The notes beneath the pieces are model-generated. The model searched no databases, was not told the origin of the DNA, and saw only the letters and a list, made by a program, of their open reading frames with translations. Source: a virus. Taken from it: 64,000 bases of DNA. The position numbers were made by a program, and so were the translations under genes. Shown in pieces: positions 6,766-56,537 of the stretch (positions are counted from its first letter, which is position 1; each line of letters begins with the position of its first letter). The stretch lies in the IMG/VR virus record IMGVR_UViG_3300013094_000036, positions 8,149 through 72,148 of that record, one strand, 5' to 3'.

Positions 6766-6857
6766 AGTGTGTAACCCTTATAAATACAGTAGAGGACAGT
6801 CCCGAGTAACCCCGGGGTTGGTGTTAGTTACCGCTAACACCTTACTCTACTATTTAT

Positions 6858-7180
6858 GATTGTATGAAGGAAAAAGAACAATTGACTGGACGCGGGGGGC
6901 AGTGCCCCGCCCGCTCCACCATAAGAGCATAAATTTACTTTGGTATTCCGTGTAAATTTACTTTGGTATTCCGTGTAAATTTACTTTGGTATTGTGTGCT
7001 TATGATGGGGGTGACTAGGTTCGATCAGCTGTGGTAAGGGTTGAGGTAGGCAATGAGTAAGATACGACTCACAATCAGTTCAAAAACTATAAATGCCAAC
7101 GATAATGTTGCATTTGAGGAAACTGCCCTAGCGGCATAACCTCATTGGGTATGGGTTCCACCTAGAAACAGAACGGACTC
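6858..7180 (+). ncRNA. ssrA: two-piece (circularly permuted) tmRNA; tag ANDNVAFEETALAA
   Basis: Acceptor piece ends CCGCTCCACCA at 6921; intervening segment; coding piece starts GGGGTGA at 7008 (G3-U70); tag reading frame 7095-7139. Outer ends are approximate. Confidence 0.92.
6930..6998. repeat. 23-bp tandem repeat x3 inside the tmRNA intervening segment
   Basis: TAAATTTACTTTGGTATTCCGTG twice plus TAAATTTACTTTGGTATTGTGTG. Confidence 0.95.
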
Positions 7181-7281
7181 AATTTCACCTGTATATTTTG
7201 ACTTTTTCAAATCTATATATTATCTTTTAAATGTGGCACATAATTTGCCACAACACACACAAACACAGAAAGGAAAATATC

Positions 7282-10070: not shown

Positions 10071-11423
10071 ATGAACAATACAACCAACTTTATAAAAGAC
10101 AGCAGCAGAGAGTACTCCATTTATGTTTGCCAAAAGCGAGGGATACCCAGTGCCAGCGATGGACTAAAAGACTCGCAACGCAAAGTATTGTTTGTGATGA
10201 AAACACAAAACGAAAAAATCAAAACTATTTCTCTGGCTGGTCGCATGATATCAGAAAATATTTACGTACATGGCGATGCGGCAGCATGTGATACAATATC
10301 CCTGATGGCTGCTCCATATTGTAATAATGTTCCTTTGTTATCAGGTGTGGGAGCATTTGGAACTCGTGTTGGACCAGATGACTGGGGTGCTCCTCGTTAT
10401 ACCTATGTAAAGAAAAACTCTTATACAGACGCATTGGTCTATCAAGATTACGACATTGTACCACTGAAAGAAAATTATGATGGAAGCGTGTTGGAACCAA
10501 AGCATTTTTTACCACTTATACCTATAGTTTTACTAAATGGTGTCAGTGGTATTGCTGTTGGTTGGAGCACAGAAATTCTACCACATAGTCTAACAAGTTT
10601 AATTGATGCCACACTGGCTGCAATTGACAACAAGAAAACTCTGCCTGATTTGCTGCCCTGTTATGAATACTTGGGCTGTTCTGTGAGAGGAATTGGTGAT
10701 AATGCCTATGAATTTAAAGGCAAAGCAACAATAGATGGCAGTAGTATTATTGTAACAGAACTACCACCAGATATAAGTTTGGAAAAATTTAAAGCAAAAC
10801 TGAATAAACTAGAAGATGAAGAAAAAATCCAAACATATGTTGATCGCAGCACCAAAGATATACATGTAGAAGTAAGATTTAAACGAGGTTCCATCACTGG
10901 CTGGACAGAGGCCAAAGCATTGGAATTTCTAAAACTAAACAGTAAAACTACACAGCGTTTGGTTGTGTTAGACTGGGATGGCAACAACGTCAGGCAATAT
11001 GATTCTACAGAATCTCTTATCAGAGACTTTGTTGAATGGCGAGTTGGATTTTACACAGTAAGATATCAAAAATTAATCCGTGATGCCACTTATCAACTTA
11101 ACTGGAATCTAGCACTAAAACAGTGTTATGATAAGGGATTGCCAGCATGGCTTCCTCGTGCACAAACGGCTGCAGAAGTTGTAGAAAAAATTCGATCAAT
11201 ATGTGCCAAAATTGACGTAGATCATGATCAAATTGACAGGATTTCAGCACTACCAAGTTATCGGTGGGCGAGAGATTCATATGATAAGACACTGAAGAAC
11301 ATTGACGATTTGACTACAACTATTGCAGACTACAACATCATTCTAAATGATCCGCAAAAAATTCGTGCTATCTATCGTCAAGAAGTTGCAGCACTGAAAA
11401 AACTGCCAAAAATAGAGCGATAA
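10071..11423 (+). CDS. DNA topoisomerase II, breakage-reunion subunit (T4 gp52 / GyrA-like)
   Basis: DGLKDSQRK, YVHGD, catalytic APRY and NGVSGIAVGW motifs. Confidence 0.95.
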   Translation: MNNTTNFIKDSSREYSIYVCQKRGIPSASDGLKDSQRKVLFVMKTQNEKIKTISLAGRMISENIYVHGDAAACDTISLMAAPYCNNVPLLSGVGAFGTRVGPDDWGAPRYTYVKKNSYTDALVYQDYDIVPLKENYDGSVLEPKHFLPLIPIVLLNGVSGIAVGWSTEILPHSLTSLIDATLAAIDNKKTLPDLLPCYEYLGCSVRGIGDNAYEFKGKATIDGSSIIVTELPPDISLEKFKAKLNKLEDEEKIQTYVDRSTKDIHVEVRFKRGSITGWTEAKALEFLKLNSKTTQRLVVLDWDGNNVRQYDSTESLIRDFVEWRVGFYTVRYQKLIRDATYQLNWNLALKQCYDKGLPAWLPRAQTAAEVVEKIRSICAKIDVDHDQIDRISALPSYRWARDSYDKTLKNIDDLTTTIADYNIILNDPQKIRAIYRQEVAALKKLPKIER

Positions 11424-17872: not shown

Positions 17873-19291
17873 ATGTCACTCACTTTCGCCCAAGCGGCGC
17901 AGGCTACTCCTAATCTATCAACGACTGCAAATGGAATGGTAACATTGGACCATAGTGGTGATCCCTCCACTACTCTGTTCTTTGCCGTTGGTTCTAGCCG
18001 AGGTAAGGATTTAACTGGTGCATTTGCCCGCGCATTCGCAGCAGAGCCAGATGTTGCCATGAAGATTCTCTTCTGGGCACGAGATGCTCGTGAGGGTGCT
18101 GGAGAGCGTGAGATTTTCCGCCAGATTATTCGTAATCTAGAAGTCACGGCTCCTGATAGTCTAGCACGCAACATGTCACTGATTCCGCTGTATGGAAGAT
18201 GGGATGACCTGCTGGTATTCAACTCACCAGCATTTAAAATTTCTGCATATAATTTGATTACTCGTGCTTTACGCGCTGGTAATGGATTGGCAGCCAAATG
18301 GTGCCCACGAAAAGGACCTGTTGCAAATGAGATTCGTAAATATTTAAACTATACTCCTAAACAGTATCGTAAGATGTTGGTGGAACTTACCAGCGTTGTA
18401 GAAACCAAAATGTGTGCCAAGGAGTGGGATGAAATAAATTATAATCATGTGCCAAGTGTAGCAGCAAATCGCTATCAGAAAGCATTTAACAAGCACGATA
18501 GTGCTCGCTATAGCATGTGGAAAGAGGGCTTAAAGACTGGTGCCAGTAAAGTAAATGCCAGTGTGCTTTATCCATATGATGTAGTAAAGGCTGTAGAGTT
18601 TGGTGATCGTGATGTTGCTCTAGCACAATGGGAAGCTTTGCCAGACTATCTTGGTGATGATGCCATCTTACCCATGGTTGATATTAGTGGCAGCATGGGT
18701 TGCCCTGTTGGCGGACAAAAGGGTGTAGGGCTAACCTGCATGGATGTGGCTATCAGCCTTGGACTTTATATCGCTGACAAGCAACAGGGTGCCTTCAAGG
18801 ATATGTGGCTAACCTTCAGCAGGGACAGTCATATTGATGTTTTAAAAGGCAATCTTCTACAGAAAATCAATCAGATTCGCAATAACGGTGGTTTGGACAC
18901 CAACCTAGAAAGTGCTTTCCGAAGCATTCTAAAGGTCGCGGTTGATAATAATGTTGCATCTGAGGATATGCCAAAATATCTGATAGTATTTTCTGATATG
19001 GAGTTCAATCCAGCCTATATGGGTGGCAATTCTGTTGGTGCATTTGAGATGGCACGGCAAATGTTTGCAGCAGCAAATTACTCATGTCCCAAAATTATCT
19101 GGTGGAACCTTAATGCCAGACCAGATGCAACTGGAAATGTGCCGGTTAGATTTGACCAAAATGGCACTGCACTTGTCTCTGGATTCTCTCCATCAATCAT
19201 GAAGAGTATTCTTTCTGGCACTCAATTTACCCCCAGAGGTATTATGCTGGGAACAGTTGGGTCAGAGAGATATAAGGCAATCACTGCTTGA
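17873..19291 (+). CDS. DUF2828-family TROVE/Ro60-like helical + vWA domain protein
   Basis: N-terminal TTANG, ARDAREGAGER, YGRWDDL, AAKWCPR; vWA MIDAS DISGSM and FSDMEF, IIWWNL, LVSGFS. Confidence 0.8.
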   Translation: MSLTFAQAAQATPNLSTTANGMVTLDHSGDPSTTLFFAVGSSRGKDLTGAFARAFAAEPDVAMKILFWARDAREGAGEREIFRQIIRNLEVTAPDSLARNMSLIPLYGRWDDLLVFNSPAFKISAYNLITRALRAGNGLAAKWCPRKGPVANEIRKYLNYTPKQYRKMLVELTSVVETKMCAKEWDEINYNHVPSVAANRYQKAFNKHDSARYSMWKEGLKTGASKVNASVLYPYDVVKAVEFGDRDVALAQWEALPDYLGDDAILPMVDISGSMGCPVGGQKGVGLTCMDVAISLGLYIADKQQGAFKDMWLTFSRDSHIDVLKGNLLQKINQIRNNGGLDTNLESAFRSILKVAVDNNVASEDMPKYLIVFSDMEFNPAYMGGNSVGAFEMARQMFAAANYSCPKIIWWNLNARPDATGNVPVRFDQNGTALVSGFSPSIMKSILSGTQFTPRGIMLGTVGSERYKAITA

Positions 19292-24274: not shown

Positions 24275-25519
24275 ATGACTGCAACAAAAGAATATCATCG
24301 CTGTAGTTTCTGTGAAAAGAATCAACAGCAAGTTAAAAAGCTTATAGCAGGAAATGATGTTTACATTTGTGATGAATGTGTAACTTTATGCTTTAGTATT
24401 TTAAAAAAGGAAGTTCCCAAAAATCTACCAGATGACTCTATCACACCTGCAAAAGTAAAAGAACGTTTAGACGAGCACGTTGTGGGACAAGATATTGCCA
24501 AAAGAACTTTGGCAGTTGCAATTTACAACCATATCAAGCGGATTAATAATCCAGAAATTGATGGTGTTACTATAGATAAAAGCAACATGCTTTTTATTGG
24601 TGGCTCTGGAACTGGCAAAACCTATACCATTCAGAATGTTGCGAAAATTCTTGATGTGCCATTCAGTATTGTTGATGCAACAAGCTTAACAGAAAGTGGT
24701 TATGTTGGTCTTGATGTTGAAGATGCTATTGCCAAATTATATCATGCAGCAGACCAAGATGTAGCAAAAACTGAACGTGGTATTGTTTATATTGATGAGA
24801 TTGATAAAAAAGGCCGCAAAGGCGAAAATGTCTCAATTACTAGAGATGTAAGCGGCGAAGGTGTTCAACAGGCTTTGCTTAAAATGATTGAGGGCTGTGA
24901 AGTAAAAATTCCACCACAAGGTGGTCGAAAAAATCCAAATGGAGACTTTGTAACAATTAACACTAAAAATATTCTTTTTATTGTTGGTGGGTCGTTTGAA
25001 GGTCTTGACAAAATCATAGAAATCCGTCAAAATCACAATAATACAGGAATTGGATTTGGTTCAGTTGTTAAAGAACAAACAACAAAAATCAATAACTATG
25101 AACTTATCAAGCAGGTCAGAAGTGATGATCTTGTTAAGTTTGGAGTTATTCCTGAATTGATTGGTCGTCTTCCCATCGTTGTAACATTTGAAGACTTGAA
25201 TGAAGAATCTTTGGTAAAAATTCTGACTGAACCAAAAAATGCTATTATCAAGCAATTTCAAAAGATGTTTGAACTAGATAATATTATTTTGGAGTTCACA
25301 CCAGAAAGTTTAAAAGCAATTGCCTGTGAAGCAATTTTGCGGAAAACTGGTGCCAGAGGTCTTCGTAGTATTGTTGAACAAATTTTGCTTGGTGTTCAAT
25401 TTGAATTGCCAACGCTTTTTAAATCTGGTGTTAAAAAAATCTGTATAACAAAGGAAACAGTTGAAAATATGAATGAACCTTTACGTGTCTATGCAAACGA
25501 TCAGGATGTTGTATCTTGA
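24275..25519 (+). CDS. clpX: ATP-dependent Clp protease ATP-binding subunit ClpX
   Basis: CSFC...ICDEC zinc finger, GSGTGKT, GYVG, DEIDK, RDVSGEGVQQ, IGF loop and TGARGLR motifs. Confidence 0.97.
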   Translation: MTATKEYHRCSFCEKNQQQVKKLIAGNDVYICDECVTLCFSILKKEVPKNLPDDSITPAKVKERLDEHVVGQDIAKRTLAVAIYNHIKRINNPEIDGVTIDKSNMLFIGGSGTGKTYTIQNVAKILDVPFSIVDATSLTESGYVGLDVEDAIAKLYHAADQDVAKTERGIVYIDEIDKKGRKGENVSITRDVSGEGVQQALLKMIEGCEVKIPPQGGRKNPNGDFVTINTKNILFIVGGSFEGLDKIIEIRQNHNNTGIGFGSVVKEQTTKINNYELIKQVRSDDLVKFGVIPELIGRLPIVVTFEDLNEESLVKILTEPKNAIIKQFQKMFELDNIILEFTPESLKAIACEAILRKTGARGLRSIVEQILLGVQFELPTLFKSGVKKICITKETVENMNEPLRVYANDQDVVS

Positions 25520-32931: not shown

Positions 32932-34986
32932 ATGTTTAAGAAAATCGCAATATCCCCATGGATGGCCTGTGTTACTTTGGTGTTGCTACTTGTGGTTCGG
33001 GCAATGGATCCTAGTTTTGTACAAAGTGTGCGACTGCGTTATTTTGACACACTGATCACCTCTCAGCCCAGACAAGAAAACAATATAGTGGTGGCAGACA
33101 TAGATGAAAAAACACTAGACAAACTGGGTCAATGGCCATTCAAGCGTGATGAATACGCCAAAATCATTGATGAGTTATATTCACATGGTGCTGGCCTGGT
33201 GGTCTGGGATGTATTGATGCCAGAACATGATAGACTGGGAGGCGATGATGTATTAGCAGAAACACTAAAACACCACAAGGTAGTTCTAGTAAATGTGCCT
33301 GCTGCACAACAAAAGAATTTACCTCGCAAACCAGGCTCTACTATAATCAACAGTCAGTTTAGTGATGTGATAATGCAATATCCTGGTATTATTGCCAACA
33401 TTCCCGAACTGGAATCTACCGCTGCTGGTATCGGTACAACACATACCCTGCCTGAAATTGATGGAGTAAATCGTCGCTTGCCATTGGTGGTTGCCAGTCA
33501 AGGACAATTATTTCCCAGTCTTGCCATGGAAGTGCTGCGTCTAGCAGCAGGTGACAAAGGTTTTCAATTGAAACTCAGTGAAATTGGTGTTGATAAACTT
33601 CGTATTCCTAAATTTGGTCCAATCTCAACAGACCCGCTCGGTAGAATATGGATTGACTGGAGCCAGGGCTATAAAACTATTTCTGTCAGTGCAATACCTG
33701 AGAATTTGCAAGGTGCAATAGTAATAGTTGGTGCCAGTGCAGCAGGCATAGCAAATCCTGTTGCCACTGCGAAGGGAGCAGTATTTCCTCAAGATTTACA
33801 AGCCACTGTGATAGGTACGCTGGCCAACAAGGTCAATATAACCAGACCAGACTATGCAGACGGTGCTGAGATTTTAACCATTTTTGCCATTGGATTGTTG
33901 ATAATAGTAATATCCACATGGACATGGGCGTTTGTTCCCATCATAGTATTGCTGATAGCAAGCCATTTTGCTGCCGCATATGTATATGAAAAATATAGAA
34001 TTTTAATAGATATTACTGGTTTTTTATTTTCAATAGCAATAGTGTATATGCATGCTTACACTGTCAAGTTTGTTAGAGAATATCTACAGAAACAGCAGAT
34101 CAAAAAACAATTTGAGCATTATTTGGCACCGACTATGGTAAAAAAATTACAGCAAAATCCTGCTTTGTTAAAATTAGGCGGAGATACCAGAGAACTAACA
34201 ATACTATTTTGTGATATTAGAGGTTTTACTCCGATTAGTGAGCAATACAAAACAAATCCACAAGGTCTTACAAGATTAGTTAATAGGTTCCTAACTCCCA
34301 TGACAGACATTATCATGCGTAATGAAGGAACTATAGACAAATATATGGGGGATTGTATTATGGCATTTTGGAATGCACCTATAGCAGTTCCGCAGCAACA
34401 AGAGCAGGCTGTGAAAAGTGCCACGGAAATGTTGAAACATTTGACCTTGTTAAATGCTGAATTAACCCAAGAAGGTCTATTACCCATCAACATAGGTATA
34501 GGAATCAACACTGGTGAAGTTGTTGTGGGAAACATGGGCAGTAATCAAAGATTTGATTACAGTTGTCTGGGAGATGCTGTAAATCTTGCCAGCAGACTAG
34601 AAGGTCAGAGTAAAGAATATGGTGTCAAAATCATACTTGGTCATGACACTGTGCAAGCACTTGGTGGTAATTGGGTTCCTGTGGAATTGGATAACATTGC
34701 TGTCAAGGGCAAAATAGAAGGTGTGAAAATATTTACAATTATCAGTCATCACAGCAAGAGTCGCCCACAAAATATAACCATTGCCATGAGTCAGCATGAA
34801 AAGTTTTTATCTGCATACAGAACACAACGCTGGGATAGAGCACTGATATTGGGCAAAAGCCTCACTTCTGCATGGAATAGTGAATTAAAAGATTATTACA
34901 AAATGATGATAAACCGTATTGAGCAACTGAAACAAGATCCACCTGGTGCTGACTGGGACACAATTTATCGTTCAAAAACCAAGTGA
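32932..34986 (+). CDS. CHASE2-domain class III adenylate/guanylate cyclase
   Basis: GQWPFKR CHASE2, TM helices, FCDIRGFT, IDKYMGDCIMAFWNAP and GDAVNLASRLEG motifs. Confidence 0.93.
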   Translation: MFKKIAISPWMACVTLVLLLVVRAMDPSFVQSVRLRYFDTLITSQPRQENNIVVADIDEKTLDKLGQWPFKRDEYAKIIDELYSHGAGLVVWDVLMPEHDRLGGDDVLAETLKHHKVVLVNVPAAQQKNLPRKPGSTIINSQFSDVIMQYPGIIANIPELESTAAGIGTTHTLPEIDGVNRRLPLVVASQGQLFPSLAMEVLRLAAGDKGFQLKLSEIGVDKLRIPKFGPISTDPLGRIWIDWSQGYKTISVSAIPENLQGAIVIVGASAAGIANPVATAKGAVFPQDLQATVIGTLANKVNITRPDYADGAEILTIFAIGLLIIVISTWTWAFVPIIVLLIASHFAAAYVYEKYRILIDITGFLFSIAIVYMHAYTVKFVREYLQKQQIKKQFEHYLAPTMVKKLQQNPALLKLGGDTRELTILFCDIRGFTPISEQYKTNPQGLTRLVNRFLTPMTDIIMRNEGTIDKYMGDCIMAFWNAPIAVPQQQEQAVKSATEMLKHLTLLNAELTQEGLLPINIGIGINTGEVVVGNMGSNQRFDYSCLGDAVNLASRLEGQSKEYGVKIILGHDTVQALGGNWVPVELDNIAVKGKIEGVKIFTIISHHSKSRPQNITIAMSQHEKFLSAYRTQRWDRALILGKSLTSAWNSELKDYYKMMINRIEQLKQDPPGADWDTIYRSKTK

Positions 34987-36682: not shown

Positions 36683-37358
36683 GGGTGTGTAGTGGTGTAT
36701 ATGGTCTAACTGTGGATTCTATCACAGGCTCCCACCAATGCACTTTGTTGACTATATGAGGAACTCCATGGGGTGAATGAACATGTGCTGATTTTTTGGA
36801 ACCATGCTCAACATAATAGAGTTTGTTCTTTTTATGGTCATATTTAAACTTGCGAATTTCAACTGTAATATGACTATCAGCCATCCAAAAATCTAACTTA
36901 TGTCTTGGATTAAATTCGCTCCATAATTCCCAACCAAAACTGAGAAAAGGTTTTTTATCCAAAGAGCGTATCTCATCAATAGAAGTAAGAGCAAGTTGAT
37001 GTTTAATATGCCACCATGTATTGCCCAACAACTTGCACAATAACAGAGAAATTTTCTTGAAAAAAGGCAATTCTGCTTTTAATTTTGTTTCAACTGTTGT
37101 CAAATCTATGTGTTCTACTCGTGCAAATTTAGATTTTAATAACCTTGCGAGAGCAAGTGGGGAAGTGACAACCATATGTAGAAATTTTACCAAGGTAATA
37201 AAAAATTTGTGAATTATGTTTTTGATAAAATTTCCAATCTTACTTAATATTTTGCATAAAATCTTCAACAAAGATCCTATAAAAACATGGTACATAATAA
37301 CAAGAAGAGAAGGTTGTTTATTTCTAACTGCCATGAACTTATTTATTACAAACAACAA
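36663..37358 (-). CDS. hypothetical protein
   Basis: 231 aa ORF; start uncertain. Confidence 0.55.
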
Positions 37359-52032: not shown

Positions 52033-52578
52033 ATGACCAAAAAATCAAGTGTCGAAAACATGCGAGAATTAATGACACTTATGGAAAACGCAGCTGGTTT
52101 TCAAGCAGCAGACCCAACAGATCGCAGAAATATATCTTGGACTAAACCCAATCTTAATTTTGAATGGTCAGAGATAGAGTTTCAATCAGACGTGCCAGAC
52201 GTGCCATCTGATGTGAGACAGTACCTCAAGCAGCACTATCCGGATAAGGCTACCTGGCTACGGGCAGCACAGCGGGGTCAGGCGGTGACCATACCGCCTA
52301 ATCATAGGCTTGACATAGAAAACTATCCAAGAAACAAGCGGTCATTAATTGCTGAGCTCAAGCCACAGCAAGACTCGGCTGGTCCTGATAAGGCAGCTAG
52401 AGCAGAACAAGCCTTTGACAAAGGATCTGTGGAGATGCCTATTATTCTCAACACAGGCAACAGGCTTTGGTTGATTGGTGGCAAGACACGACTGGGCTTT
52501 GCCAACTATATCTTTAAAATTCCAGCTAAGGTATGGATGATAGGGGGGCAGCTCAAAAAAGCCAACTATTACGGTTGA
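52033..52578 (+). CDS. hypothetical late protein
   Basis: TAAATA and GGAG SD; MRELMTLME motif. Confidence 0.65.
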   Translation: MTKKSSVENMRELMTLMENAAGFQAADPTDRRNISWTKPNLNFEWSEIEFQSDVPDVPSDVRQYLKQHYPDKATWLRAAQRGQAVTIPPNHRLDIENYPRNKRSLIAELKPQQDSAGPDKAARAEQAFDKGSVEMPIILNTGNRLWLIGGKTRLGFANYIFKIPAKVWMIGGQLKKANYYG

Positions 52579-52867
52579 AGAAATAGTAGCAATAAAACGG
52601 TATCTAACATCGGGTAAATATGATGAATAAAAATTTACTCTGTTAGATACTACAAAATCATTTAAAACCGAAAATTGTCTCCCTGACCAATTATGGTTGA
52701 CTAATCATGTGACTCTAGAACAATATTATCAAACAGGAAAATTTCACCTTTCATCCGACGACGAAAAAATTTAAAAAAAATATCATAACCGTGCATTTTT
52801 TCAGTTGACAGATAAGTAAATATGATATATAAATACACTCATAAAGAGGATTAAGAGTTCAAAAACA

Positions 52868-52945
52868 ATGATGCAAAAAACAACAATTTTATGTAATGTA
52901 ATTAACCGCGAGGCCTATAAGCCCGTGCTGAGGTTTGCTGCCTAG
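52868..52945 (+). CDS. putative leader peptide MMQKTTILCNVINREAYKPVLRFAA
   Basis: 25 codons between the promoter (TTGACA 52805 / TATAAATA 52828) and a terminator; 3' end complementary to the terminator 5' arm; SD weak. Confidence 0.6.
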   Translation: MMQKTTILCNVINREAYKPVLRFAA

Positions 52946-52973
52946 AGGATTCGTATAGATCATCAAGGTAAGC

Positions 52974-53008
52974 AAACCCCAGAAACAAAAATTCTGGGGT
53001 TTTTTGTT
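52974..53008 (+). terminator. intrinsic terminator / attenuator upstream of the tRNA cluster
   Basis: AAACCCCAGAA-ACAAAAA-TTCTGGGGTTT followed by TTTGTT. Confidence 0.85.
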
Positions 53009-53011
53009 ACA

Positions 53012-53236
53012 CAGGGTTTGAGAACTGACGACGATTTTGGTCACCTATGGCCAGTGTTTAGCGTATGAAACACAAAGGATAGGGACTCGCGGAGGGCAAC
53101 AAGGTAGATATGTCTACTGGATACCAATGCGAGGCTGGGTTAGATAGAGATCACCCAGTAGGAGTTGCCATATAGGCGACTCTGTTCGTGATTGTTTTGT
53201 GGGACGATGATGAGGGAAAGTCATCGTCCCAGAAAG
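53012..53236 (+). ncRNA. unknown multi-hairpin RNA
   Basis: At least six hairpins inside an AGGGTTT/AAACCTT closing stem; no ORF. Confidence 0.55.
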
Positions 53237-53295
53237 TGAAACCTTTTGCAGAATGTATTTTTTGAAATGATTGTGCTAAGGGTTTTTAAGAATTT

Positions 53296-53381
53296 GAGGG
53301 GGCGCCAGAGTTGGAGAGCTGGAGCAGACTGTAAATCTGCCGCTTATTGCTGAGTGTGTTCGAATCACACCCCCCTCACCA
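53296..53381 (+). tRNA. tRNA-Tyr(GTA)
   Basis: GAGGGGG/CCCCCTC, GCAGA-CTGTAAA-TCTGC, long variable arm, TTCGAAT, CCA. Confidence 0.92.
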
Positions 53382-53392
53382 ACATAAGATAA

Positions 53393-53467
53393 CAGGGCGT
53401 AGCTCAGAAGGAGAGTGCTAGTTTTGGAAACTAGAGGCCGGGATTGCAAAACTCCCCGCCCTGACCA
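53393..53467 (+). tRNA. tRNA-Pro(TGG)
   Basis: CAGGGCG/CGCCCTG, CTAGT-TTTGGAA-ACTAG, CCA. Confidence 0.88.
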
Positions 53468-53482
53468 GATAAAATAATATAT

Positions 53483-53557
53483 GGGTCTAAAGTGTTGTTG
53501 GGGGCACGCGGGATTTGCATTCCCGAAGGCGGGATTCAAGCTCCCGTAGATCCACCA
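53483..53557 (+). tRNA. tRNA-Ala(TGC)
   Basis: GGGTCTA/TAGATCC with G3-U70, CGGGA-TTTGCAT-TCCCG, CCA. Confidence 0.88.
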
Positions 53558-53640
53558 CTATTTTGGGTAATTTTCAATGCGTTGTAGTAATTCTTCCAGT
53601 GTCATTCTTGAAGTTTTTCTTGCAAAATTTTCTTCCCAAC
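53558..53640 (-). pseudogene. C-terminal remnant of an HNH endonuclease
   Basis: Reads WEENFARKTSRMTLEELLQRIENYPK*, resembling SSITLEELMKRI of the 54750 HNH. Confidence 0.5.
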
Positions 53641-53651
53641 TAATCAATTAT

Positions 53652-53725
53652 GCCTCGTTCGTCCAATGGCAGGGCCGCATCTTTACACGGTGCAGACGGC
53701 AGTTCGATTCTGTCACGAGGTACCA
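53652..53725 (+). tRNA. tRNA-Val(TAC)
   Basis: GCCTCGT/ACGAGGT, GCATC-TTTACAC-GGTGC, TTCGATT, CCA. Confidence 0.9.
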
Positions 53726-53751
53726 ACGATTATTTTGGTATAAATAACTGC

Positions 53752-54312
53752 ATGAAAATTGCTATAACAGGTCATACTAGTGGTATCGGTATTGCAACAT
53801 ATAATCTACTGCAAGAACACAATCATATCGTACAAGGGTTCAGTAGATCTAATGGGTTTGATCTAACTAATCAAGCAGAACGAACCAGTATGTATCAAAT
53901 TCTTAAAAATGAACAATTTGACTGTTTGATAAACAATGCATATCCTTATCAATCCGCACATGGCACCAACGGGTTTATGCAAACAGCAATATTAAATGAT
54001 GTTTGGAAAATCTGGCGTTCTGATCCTGGAAAAACTATAATAACCATTGGTAGTTTAGGAGCAGACCATGTAAAAAACCAGTATATGCCATATGCTATTC
54101 ATAAAAAATCAATTGACGATACTGCAAAACAATTGAGATTGGCTTGCCAATATCCACAAGTCACTGTTATCAAACCTAGCTGGGTAGACACACCTGCTGT
54201 CAAGCAGTTCGATGGCAATAAATGCACAGCCCAACAGGTGGCAGAGATAATTCTTTGGATTTTAAACTGCCAAGTTAGAATTTTAGATATAACTTTTGAA
54301 AAGCGTGTTTAA
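53752..54312 (+). CDS. short-chain dehydrogenase/reductase
   Basis: TGHTSGIG, NNA and YAIHK motifs; TATAAATA at 53739; start corrected from 53650. Confidence 0.85.
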   Translation: MKIAITGHTSGIGIATYNLLQEHNHIVQGFSRSNGFDLTNQAERTSMYQILKNEQFDCLINNAYPYQSAHGTNGFMQTAILNDVWKIWRSDPGKTIITIGSLGADHVKNQYMPYAIHKKSIDDTAKQLRLACQYPQVTVIKPSWVDTPAVKQFDGNKCTAQQVAEIILWILNCQVRILDITFEKRV

Positions 54313-54682: not shown

Positions 54683-54749
54683 AAAAATAACAACGATTAC
54701 TGCGATTGAAACCAAAATAACTGTGATATGTTCCGTTGCCAGAGATAGT

Positions 54750-55588
54750 TCAATGGTATATCTGCTCAAACATAGTAATCCGTTTCATTAACTCTTCTAA
54801 TGTTATAGAAGATTTTGAATGTTTGTTTTGATTTGTTCGATGCGGAATGATTCGGCAATTTGCTGGATGTGCAAGTATTTTTGGATCAACACCATTTTTA
54901 AATCCATCAGAAACAGAATATAAGTGATCGCGAGAACAACCTTCTAAATTTTTTTTCTGTTAGCTGCTGAATACCAACCATATTGTTTGATAAGTGCAGA
55001 TGCATCCATAAACCAGTCTGCATAATCTGTTATACAGAAAGTGAACCTTGTTTGGTATCTATATAAACTTTTGTTATCTATAGTATCTGGATGTATAGTT
55101 TTAATAGTTTTTGAATACCATATTTTTCCGGTTATTTTGCACTTGCATAGATATACTCGAGTGTATGGGCCAACTATTTGTGATTTGAAAAGTTTTTTGG
55201 CAATATATTTTGGATTTTTACTCTCGTGAGTTGGCCTAGTAGCACGCCCTTTCAAAGTTTCAGATCGTTTCTTTTTTGAAATTTCTGATTGAGGACCACG
55301 TTGTTTGTTATTAAACTTTGCTGCACATGACTGCGTACAAAATTTGTTTTTGTTTTCATGTTGTTCATATGAAAGTGCCGATTTGCAGTTCAAACACAAA
55401 TTTGGATTTTCTAAGTATTTGGAGATTATTTTTTGTTTTTCCTTTAAGAGTTTTTCGGAAAGGGCTTTTCCTCGTCCTAAACCAGAACACCTAAAGTTAC
55501 AAAATTTTGGATTAATTGTTGGCTTGCCACATGCAGCACATGGTTTTTCTTTTAGAGTAGATGATTTTTTATAAATATCATTAGACAT
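54750..55588 (-). pseudogene. HNH homing endonuclease with zinc-finger repeats, frameshifted at an A8 run (about 54950)
   Basis: CAACG..FCNFRC and CLNC..FCTQSC; the -1 frame continues SRDHLYSVSDGF..HPANC..N..K to TGA at 54750. Confidence 0.8.
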
Positions 55589-55672
55589 TGTCTTTTCCTT
55601 ATAGTATAATAAGACTGTGTTTAGAGATACAAGATGCGTCAACATCTTGTATCTCGTTTATTTAGTTAATTT

Positions 55673-55757
55673 GATCCAGTGACCAGAGATAGTAATGGCC
55701 CCGGCTGCAACCCGGAAAATCGGATTAACGAGTATGCAAGCGACCCACGGAACTCCA
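55673..55757 (+). pseudogene. chimeric/degenerate tRNA-Cys(GCA)
   Basis: CCGG-CTGCAAC-CCGG arm and TCCA end; the 3' acceptor ACGGAAC pairs with GTTCCGT at 54730, not with its own 5' end. Confidence 0.6.
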
Positions 55758-55930: not shown

Positions 55931-55945
55931 ATAAATAAAATCGAT

Positions 55946-56018
55946 GCAGATGTTGCATAGCGGCTATTGCTCCTCCTTGCCAAGGAGGTTTTCGTGGGTT
56001 CGAGTCCCATCATCTGCT
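55946..56018 (+). tRNA. tRNA-Gly(GCC), no encoded CCA
   Basis: GCAGATG/CATCTGC, CCTCC-TTGCCAA-GGAGG, TTCGAGT. Confidence 0.9.
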
Positions 56019-56116
56019 TTTATAAAAAACCCCTTGACTTTCTCTGAATATACGGTATTATACATATATAAAGCAAGTGGTTCTTTGATAGTTTAATATG
56101 TAATTAGAAATTTTAT

Positions 56117-56261
56117 TCCTGGGTAGCTCAATTGGTAGAGCACCTGACTGGGGTCAAGCGTAGAATGCGAACAGGTAGGAAATACTTGTTATTGCCGTGC
56201 AATACGGCTAGACCAAATTTTAATCAGGTGGTTGGGGGATCGTTGCCCTCCCCAGGAGCCA
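56117..56261 (+). tRNA. tRNA-Asn(GTT)-type gene with a 69-nt structured insert in the anticodon
   Basis: TCCTGGG/CCCAGGA-GCCA, canonical D arm, CCTGA-CTG[insert]TTAA-TCAGG. Confidence 0.8.
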
Positions 56262-56411
56262 AAAATCATAGTCGCAGTATATCCCAGCATGCGTGCTGGT
56301 TTTTACTGTGACTTGGTAAGATGCTGTATCACGCTAGAATAAATCGAATGTGGCAGGCTGCATCAGATACACGGCGGGTTAGGGGGCCAGTGTATAGAGT
56401 TTTTAAATTTG

Positions 56412-56537
56412 GGGATAGCAACAGCCAATGGGGCTGAGCACCAATATAAGGATGTGTCGAGATCAGGAAAAACGCCGTGGGCGTCTGATATCAGCATCTG
56501 GGTGTCGAGGGCGGTTCGATCCCGCTGCATCCCGCCA
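56412..56537 (+). ncRNA. tRNA-like RNA with a long branched arm replacing the anticodon arm
   Basis: GGGAT(A)GC/GCATCCC-GCCA, CAGCC/GGCTG and GGCGG-TTCGATC-CCGCT. Confidence 0.65.

Follow-up and report, generated by a model that had tools for sequence, protein, structure and literature searches.

A leader with an intrinsic terminator and an overlapping hairpin ahead of four phage tRNA genes

A promoter, a leader and an intrinsic terminator precede four tRNA genes in a 64-kb stretch of DNA from a lake jumbo phage (the window), which represents positions 8149-72148 of the 72-kb IMG/VR record IMGVR_UViG_3300013094_000036, a record rated ~20% complete. None of the four tRNA genes has a promoter-like site of its own, RNA that crosses the terminator was present in two metatranscriptome libraries, and a hairpin that overlaps the 5′ arm of the terminator is non-random. 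A first-pass annotation had described the region as a leader-peptide attenuator that gates the phage tRNA cluster. The promoter, the 25-codon open reading frame (ORF), the terminator and the overlapping hairpin that it named were each found in the sequence, and its order of promoter, leader and terminator ahead of the tRNAs was borne out. We tentatively interpret the unit as the 5′ part of a phage stable-RNA and tRNA operon with a leaky intrinsic terminator that is trimmed by the overlapping hairpin, an interpretation that appears plausible, if somewhat short of probable.

In this scheme a strong promoter, TTGACA-17-TATAAATA, would start RNA near 52841, and the first ~165 nt would fold into hairpins and end at a canonical intrinsic terminator. 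The terminator would be leaky, such that a part of the transcripts would stop to give a small RNA of ~165 nt, while the remainder would pass through a 290-nt folded spacer into tRNA-Tyr, tRNA-Pro(TGG), tRNA-Ala and tRNA-Val. The hairpin at 52928-52982 would form first, overlap the base of the terminator and lower termination somewhat, tuning rather than switching expression. Once the tRNAs were cut out, the leader would persist as a stable RNA of ~380 nt (52858 to ~53237).

Transcription signals and RNA across the terminator

The promoter is located on the plus strand at 52805-52835, downstream of A/T tracts at 52764-52801, and consists of TTGACA (52805-52810), a 17-nt spacer and TATAAATA (52828-52835). 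The pattern TTGACA-N16-18-TATAAAT was matched twice in the window against 0.03 matches expected, and two or more matches were obtained in 0/100 shuffles. The site has the arrangement of a sigma-70-type promoter, TTGACA-17-TATAAA(TA), and RNA contigs start downstream of it (their shared start being a weak hint); transcription would be expected to start near 52841. Promoter scans of the plus strand over 52827-53739 detected no promoter-like site. The tRNA genes in question, all on the plus strand, are tRNA-Tyr(GTA) at 53296-53381, a tRNA at 53393-53464 whose anticodon TGG (Pro) was read by eye, tRNA-Ala(TGC) at 53483-53557 and tRNA-Val(TAC) at 53652-53725. As no promoter-like site lies between the terminator and any of them, these four tRNAs depend on read-through.

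Contigs from two metatranscriptome runs, which belong to different studies, were examined over a 5-kb stretch. The deepest contig of each run was found on the leader: X9 extends over 52858-53237 at a depth of 12.3 and X10 over 52858-53194 at a depth of 5.2, both with 0 differences from the window, and the other covered parts had a depth of 2-3. Both contigs begin exactly at 52858 and both bridge the terminator, therefore read-through RNA exists. Neither run gave cover over 52503-52836; stretches lacking RNA-contig cover were not taken as evidence of silence. The contigs fit transcription that begins 3′ of the predicted promoter, RNA that continues past the terminator and a stable product whose end is close to the hairpin at 53201-53230.

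Any control by the leader would end at 53740. A short-chain-dehydrogenase-like gene on the plus strand (53740-54312) carries its own ATAAATA at 53740-53746, 5 nt before the ATG, and this signal marks the end of the unit. A second such motif, at 55931, and the minus-strand gene that splits the tRNA array (54944-55645) place the rest of the tRNA region outside the control of the leader. The tRNA cluster is therefore not gated as a whole, the need for read-through applying to its first four tRNAs.

The motif ATAAATA/CTAAATA was also observed 5-6 nt ahead of the ATG for at least nine real ORFs, a distance that leaves no space for a Shine-Dalgarno (SD) sequence. These sites are at 11420, 19491, 32920, 53740, 58302 and 59787 on the plus strand and at 37346, 28243 and 14307 on the minus strand; two further sites lie upstream of the transfer-messenger RNA (tmRNA) gene (6780) and of tRNA-Gly (55931, 8 nt ahead of the tRNA at 55946). 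The motif looks like a T4-late-type promoter, which would yield leaderless or near-leaderless mRNAs. At the leader the position 5 nt past the motif reads ATA rather than ATG, so an RNA starting at ~52841 would not open with a leaderless ORF.

Terminator and competing hairpin

The terminator occupies 52974-53010 on the plus strand, with a stem at 52974-53002 and a T-run to 53010. The stem has 11 pairs (5 G-C), made up of an 8-bp G+C core, CCCCAGAA/TTCTGGGG, and three A:T pairs; it closes a loop of 7 nt, has an energy of -15.2 kcal/mol and is followed by the T-run TTTTTTGTT. The predicted fold places a stem-loop directly before a T-run, as in an intrinsic terminator, and the RNA contigs cross it.

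The competing hairpin, named the antiterminator in the annotation, is formed on the plus strand at 52928-52982 with a predicted energy of -24.8 kcal/mol. Its 5′ arm (52928-52943, CTGAGGTTTGCTGCCT) comprises the last codons of the ORF and the T of the stop codon, and its 3′ arm (52966-52982, AGGTAAGCAAACCCCAG) competes with the terminator through the pairs made to 52974-52982. The minimum free energy fold of 52840-53015 selects this alternative pairing (-44.3 kcal/mol, z -3.5, 0/200 shuffles as good).

The hairpin overlapping the terminator is non-random. The duplex formed by 52964-52984 with the 120 nt upstream had an energy of -21.6 kcal/mol against -9.3 +/- 2.2 kcal/mol in shuffles, a value matched by 1/2000 shuffles, and a repeat of the test gave p 0.001 (n=1000). 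The signal is derived mostly from the 10 nt directly 5′ of the terminator, and the 11-nt terminator arm alone was marginal (-8.6 against -5.4 +/- 1.8, p 0.056). Ten further strong terminators, taken from the window and a relative, yielded p values from 0.021 to 0.967 in the same test.

To describe the decision point, RNA 52841-53002 was folded with the U-tract still in the polymerase hybrid. In free RNA the upper seven pairs of the terminator had P 0.81-0.96 and the three at its base P 0.20-0.67, and the outer pairs that compete with it had P 0.04-0.30. With a ribosome on the stop codon the terminator reached P 0.92-1.00 except in the pair at either end, and the competing outer pairs fell to 0. 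With the A site on codon 5 or on codon 15 the terminator and competing pairs were nearly as in free RNA, the upper pairs of the terminator having P 0.76-0.98 and P 0.70-0.91 respectively; in free RNA and in these two states the competing outer pairs spanned P 0.02-0.54 overall. With the A site on codons 18-22 the terminator was favoured and the competing arm masked, and in the model the 5′ arm stayed free only with stalls at codons 16-17 or earlier.

The full competing fold has a predicted energy of -24.8 kcal/mol against -27.8 kcal/mol for a truncated hairpin together with the terminator, which makes the terminator state 3 kcal/mol the stabler, and a barrier of 7.0 kcal/mol between the two states was calculated with findpath. 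An earlier 'antiterminator' optimum of -29.0 kcal/mol had relied on pairing of the U-tract, which the polymerase still holds at the decision point. The overlap of the two folds at 52974-52982 is real, but in the model the terminator wins even in free RNA. As the upstream hairpin forms first, termination can shift somewhat; on these calculations the hairpin would tune termination, and no clean either/or switch is predicted.

These data bear on the alternative that the annotation had proposed, a leader-peptide attenuator in which translation to the stop codon masks 52928-52943, the terminator forms and the tRNAs are off, whereas a stall before about codon 17 turns them on. We consider this unlikely. 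The layout is right for it, with the stop codon inside the 5′ arm of a non-random hairpin and tRNAs that have no promoter-like site of their own, and the prediction that a ribosome at the stop codon masks the antiterminator strand was reproduced in the model, where the terminator was freed completely (P 0.92-1.00, competing pairs 0). However, the further prediction that stalling at almost any earlier codon frees the antiterminator failed in the model, since an A site on codons 18-22 masks the competing arm and favours termination, the opposite of what a feedback loop would need. Free RNA and RNA with a ribosome at codon 5 or 15 keep the upper terminator pairs at P >=0.70, and the barrier is only ~7 kcal/mol. 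An anti-antiterminator or pause (1:2) element is also lacking, as in the folds the 5′ arm has no partner upstream, where a small local hairpin at 52906-52926 is all that is seen.

The short open reading frame

The 25-codon ORF (ATGATG...TAG, 52868-52945, plus strand) would encode MMQKTTILCNVINREAYKPVLRFAA. A recount from the sequence agreed with the annotation on 21 distinct codons and 15 amino acids. The length of the ORF is unremarkable: a complete ATG ORF of at least 25 codons was found in 418/5000 dinucleotide shuffles of 52841-52973 (~8%) and in 208/2556 133-nt windows of the 64 kb, a frequency that counts against an attenuator.

Signals for translation were weak. Two SD-like runs, AAGAGG and AAGAG, lie 18 nt and 10 nt ahead of the ATG and neither is well placed; pairing with the anti-SD sequence in the 20 nt upstream of the ORF amounted to -3.1 kcal/mol. 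Among 52 long phage ORFs, 26 paired no better than the short ORF and 21 reached -5 or lower, therefore a weak SD does not disqualify the short ORF in this phage. The start region of the ORF is A-rich and little paired in the predicted fold, which, like the SD comparison, is in keeping with an attenuator. The RNA contigs start 10 nt ahead of the ATG; if 52858 is the true 5′ end, both SD-like runs are missing from that RNA, which counts against an attenuator.

A narrower variant of the attenuator, which shares in the doubt attached to the whole, would sense the decoding of Ala, Tyr, Lys, Pro and Val codons. Codons 16-20 (52913-52927) read Ala-Tyr-Lys-Pro-Val and so name the amino acids of the four adjacent downstream tRNAs, Tyr, Pro(TGG), Ala and Val, and that of a more distant one, Lys. 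Clustering of A, Y, P and V within five residues occurred in 1002/100000 random 25-mers and in 4025/100000 permutations of the peptide, in a test that is post hoc because the match was noticed only after inspection of the sequence, and this post hoc origin weighs against the variant. The GCC and CCC codons in the ORF, moreover, are not standard cognates of the UGC and UGG anticodons. Codons 16-20 were also seen to build a small hairpin, GGCC-UAUAA-GCC(C).

The structured spacer RNA

Between the terminator and tRNA-Tyr is a spacer of 290 nt (53006-53295, plus strand), described previously as a noncoding RNA (ncRNA), with no ORF of note. It folds to -99.5 kcal/mol (z -6.1, 0/200 shuffles as good), and the predicted structure contains a four-hairpin multiloop at 53021-53195 and a 12-bp hairpin at 53201-53230. 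The fold of 52858-53240 reached -132.6 kcal/mol (z -6.9, 0/100 shuffles as good) and five consecutive 200-nt windows over 52800-53399 had structure z values of -3.1 to -5.4. In the full-length fold the T-run behind the terminator is paired, its partner being the A-run at 52873-52881.

The whole stretch could accordingly be read as a single processed ncRNA of ~380-450 nt (52841/52858 to ~53237-53295), with an internal helix in place of a true terminator and a fortuitous ORF, an orphan counterpart of GOLLD or ROOL. Single RNA contigs that span 52858-53237, a fold far beyond that of shuffles (z -6.9), the pairing of the A-run with the post-terminator T-run and the presence of GOLLD in comparable places of relatives all suit this explanation. 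However, no Rfam family matches, there was no homologue in 26 records searched by blastn or in 17 searched with a covariance model and hence no covariation, and a stem with an 8-bp G+C core that leads into nine T's has the classic form of a terminator, at which a sizeable fraction of host polymerase should halt. A single ncRNA appears quite unlikely, and the leaky terminator is preferred.

No Rfam family, including T-box, ROOL, YrlA and GOLLD (RF02032), was matched at the gathering score in the window or in its own record. GOLLD identity for the spacer RNA was rejected, there being no match in the window or the 72-kb record, though the model scored 202.6 and 234.1 bits in relatives. Nor was 52700-53295 accepted as a tRNA-like element or a pseudo-tRNA, as ARAGORN at 85% thresholds found only tRNA-Tyr. 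The GOLLD RNAs of the two relatives, each with an embedded tRNA and each in a tRNA region, are at G013:15619-16087 (L060 1620-2088, minus strand, 202.6 bits) and G027:153462-153918 (L061, 234.1 bits); the copy in G013 lies behind a TTGACA-17-TATATT promoter.

Relatives and conservation

The annotation had suggested looking for the same layout in related phages; the module itself was absent from the records searched, and a single non-homologous analogue was found. A search with topoisomerase II gave 33 related viral loci. By blastn of 52640-53300 against 26 related records the best E value was 0.02 over 19 nt and the module was present in 0/26; a single-sequence covariance model of 53021-53200 matched, among 18 records searched, its own record only (0/17 relatives). 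Exact DNA patterns from the leader and tRNA-Tyr had 0 matches in the viral contig set, and blastn against GenBank phages returned matches to tRNA-Tyr only, in two records.

The analogue was found in G027, a complete 518-kb relative whose 56 tRNAs are interspersed among genes and which has many TTGACA promoters, one of them ending 9 nt before a tRNA. The look-alike module consists of TTGACA-17-TATAAATA, a 47-codon ORF, a terminator, a 240-nt spacer and tRNA-Leu. It was rejected as a homologue, since its local alignment scores were reached by 27/500 and 5/500 shuffles, and BLASTP showed no similarity between the 47-codon peptide and that of the 25-codon ORF. The competing-pairing test was not significant in this module (p 0.165), its spacer is weakly structured (z -1.8) and a promoter-like site separates its terminator from its tRNA. 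With no significant competing pairing, a promoter-like site before the tRNA and an unrelated peptide, the G027 analogue weighs against an attenuator.

The same layout in G027, with its longer ORF, does agree with a third alternative, that promoter, ORF and terminator, which together make a complete gene layout, form an independent small gene for a 25-residue protein, with the tRNAs transcribed by incidental read-through. The ...RFAA end of the peptide, likened to a ClpXP degron in the annotation, might tie it to ClpX and tmRNA, and genes for a ClpX-like ATPase and for a tmRNA with a tag ending ALAA are indeed present in the phage. The SD is weak or misplaced, however, the length of the ORF is within chance expectation, the peptide is unlike that of G027 and the four tRNAs would be left without a promoter-like site; we regard an independent small gene as very unlikely.

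Two DNA variants carry the leader unchanged. X7 has 0/414 differences across it (identical over 52584-52997) against 33/~460 (~7%) in the upstream gene, and X3 has 1/971 differences with an identical leader. This identity was rejected as evidence of constraint, because the sharp divergence boundary fits a shared, recently exchanged cassette. The mosaic boundary is at 52584-52640, in keeping with exchange of the tRNA-leader block as a cassette.

Relatives of the upstream gene are present in five viral contigs, at 69-70% identity, and at eight metagenome loci, three of which are at 87%, and no tRNA was found within the flanks of any of these. DNA homology with the three closest loci, L007-L009 (92% over 699 nt), stops at 52638, just past the stop codon. 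In the window there is one extra G in the G-run at 52543-52547 compared with X3, X7 and L008, so that the upstream ORF appears to end at 52578 instead of at a TAA near 52629-52631, where the frame of the relatives ends; the extra G is either an assembly slip or a real frameshift.

Genomic setting

The virus of the window is present in lake-water runs. The window encodes T4-type topoisomerase II subunits, and we take these and the TATAAATA motif to be T4-like. A permuted (two-piece) tmRNA is located at 6824-7230, with the tag ANDNVAFEETALAA, which ends ALAA and which we presume to be of alphaproteobacterial appearance; the tmRNA matches Rfam's alphaproteobacterial tmRNA family. A ClpX-like ATPase with the ClpX zinc finger is encoded at 24275-25516 and makes up, with the tmRNA, a phage-borne tagging and unfolding pair. 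Other genes include a CHASE2-adenylate/guanylate cyclase protein of 684 aa (32932-34983) and a DUF2828/DUF7788 protein (17873-19288) labelled in PHROGs as an RNA-binding protein.

The dispersed tRNA region of the window begins at 53296. The dehydrogenase-like protein and a 465-aa protein had no relatives in the viral contig set. The DNA variant contig X3 skips 944 nt at 54738-55683, which removes the minus-strand gene, a 233-aa Cys-rich ORF (54944-55645), and the skipped part has the look of a mobile insertion within the tRNA region; the start of the ORF shares bases with a 13-bp hairpin (55624-55655). At relaxed thresholds ARAGORN identified an intron-containing tRNA-Lys (TTT, 69-nt intron) at 56117-56261 and a tRNA-His at 56449-56537. 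The segments 56115-56150 and 56229-56264 match the two halves of a tRNA-Asn of G027.

Discussion

Several points weigh against a stable-RNA and tRNA operon with a leaky terminator. The contigs reveal no strand, ends or relative levels, and partial termination is something that we infer. A contig end common to two runs is a weak hint only, and carry-over of DNA in RNA libraries is possible. No homologue was found, so no covariation supports any fold. The overlap of hairpin and terminator, with the stop codon inside the 5′ arm, is also what a ribosome-sensing design predicts, as are the Ala-Tyr-Lys-Pro-Val codons (1002/100000, post hoc).

The trpL, hisL and pheL leaders are leader-peptide transcription attenuators of amino-acid operons. 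The region described here resembles them in having a promoter-proximal short ORF, an intrinsic terminator before the genes and an upstream hairpin that shares terminator bases, and in the placing of its stop codon, at which a terminating ribosome would cover the upstream arm. It differs in that the genes under control would be those for tRNAs and not for biosynthetic enzymes, in having neither a regulatory codon run nor a 1:2 pause or anti-antiterminator element, and in that only the base of the terminator is overlapped and the terminator is the stabler fold at the decision point.

An attenuator of Sinorhizobium meliloti is described as the source of the small RNA rnTrpL and the peptide peTrpL (PMC6614838, PMC7968998). 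As is described for rnTrpL, the terminated leader transcript of the phage could be a functional small RNA, in an alphaproteobacterial setting that is suggested by the Rfam match of the tmRNA. The leader, however, has no sequence relation to rnTrpL and no Trp codons, and any function in trans is pure conjecture.

GOLLD and ROOL are described as large structured phage RNAs, often near tRNA islands. The leader and spacer resemble them as a highly structured RNA beside phage tRNAs in a lake sample, but the RNA is shorter (~290-450 nt), matches no family and had no homologue in our searches. In the tRNA region of T4, tRNAs and small stable RNAs are made from one precursor. Compared by description only, the proposed precursor of tRNAs and a stable RNA in this phage is similar, although we know of no leader of ORF and terminator in the T4 tRNA region.

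Phage tRNAs are now regarded, in accounts of the field, as counter-measures to host defences that cleave tRNA, and the timing and dosing of their expression have been little studied. Among the papers found in a literature search, as judged by their abstracts, none described an attenuator ahead of phage tRNA genes. To our knowledge no such attenuator is known. The strongly folded leader and spacer RNA, which is outside known families, adds to the structured RNAs beside phage tRNA islands.

Four tRNAs with no promoter-like site of their own, behind a terminator that natural transcripts cross, make regulated or set-point read-through likely. We consider it distinctly unlikely that the ORF encodes a real leader peptide at which stalled ribosomes, most of all at Ala-Tyr(-Lys-Pro-Val), hold back the terminator and so turn on the Tyr, Pro, Ala and Val tRNAs of the phage when host tRNAs are cleaved or depleted. 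Were this the case, the leader would be the first attenuator known to control tRNA genes, and the phage would sense a tRNA-targeting defence or the collapse of translation. If read-through depends on the ribosome, the leader would be a new kind of sensor; if it does not, it would be an ordinary leaky terminator in a stable-RNA operon.

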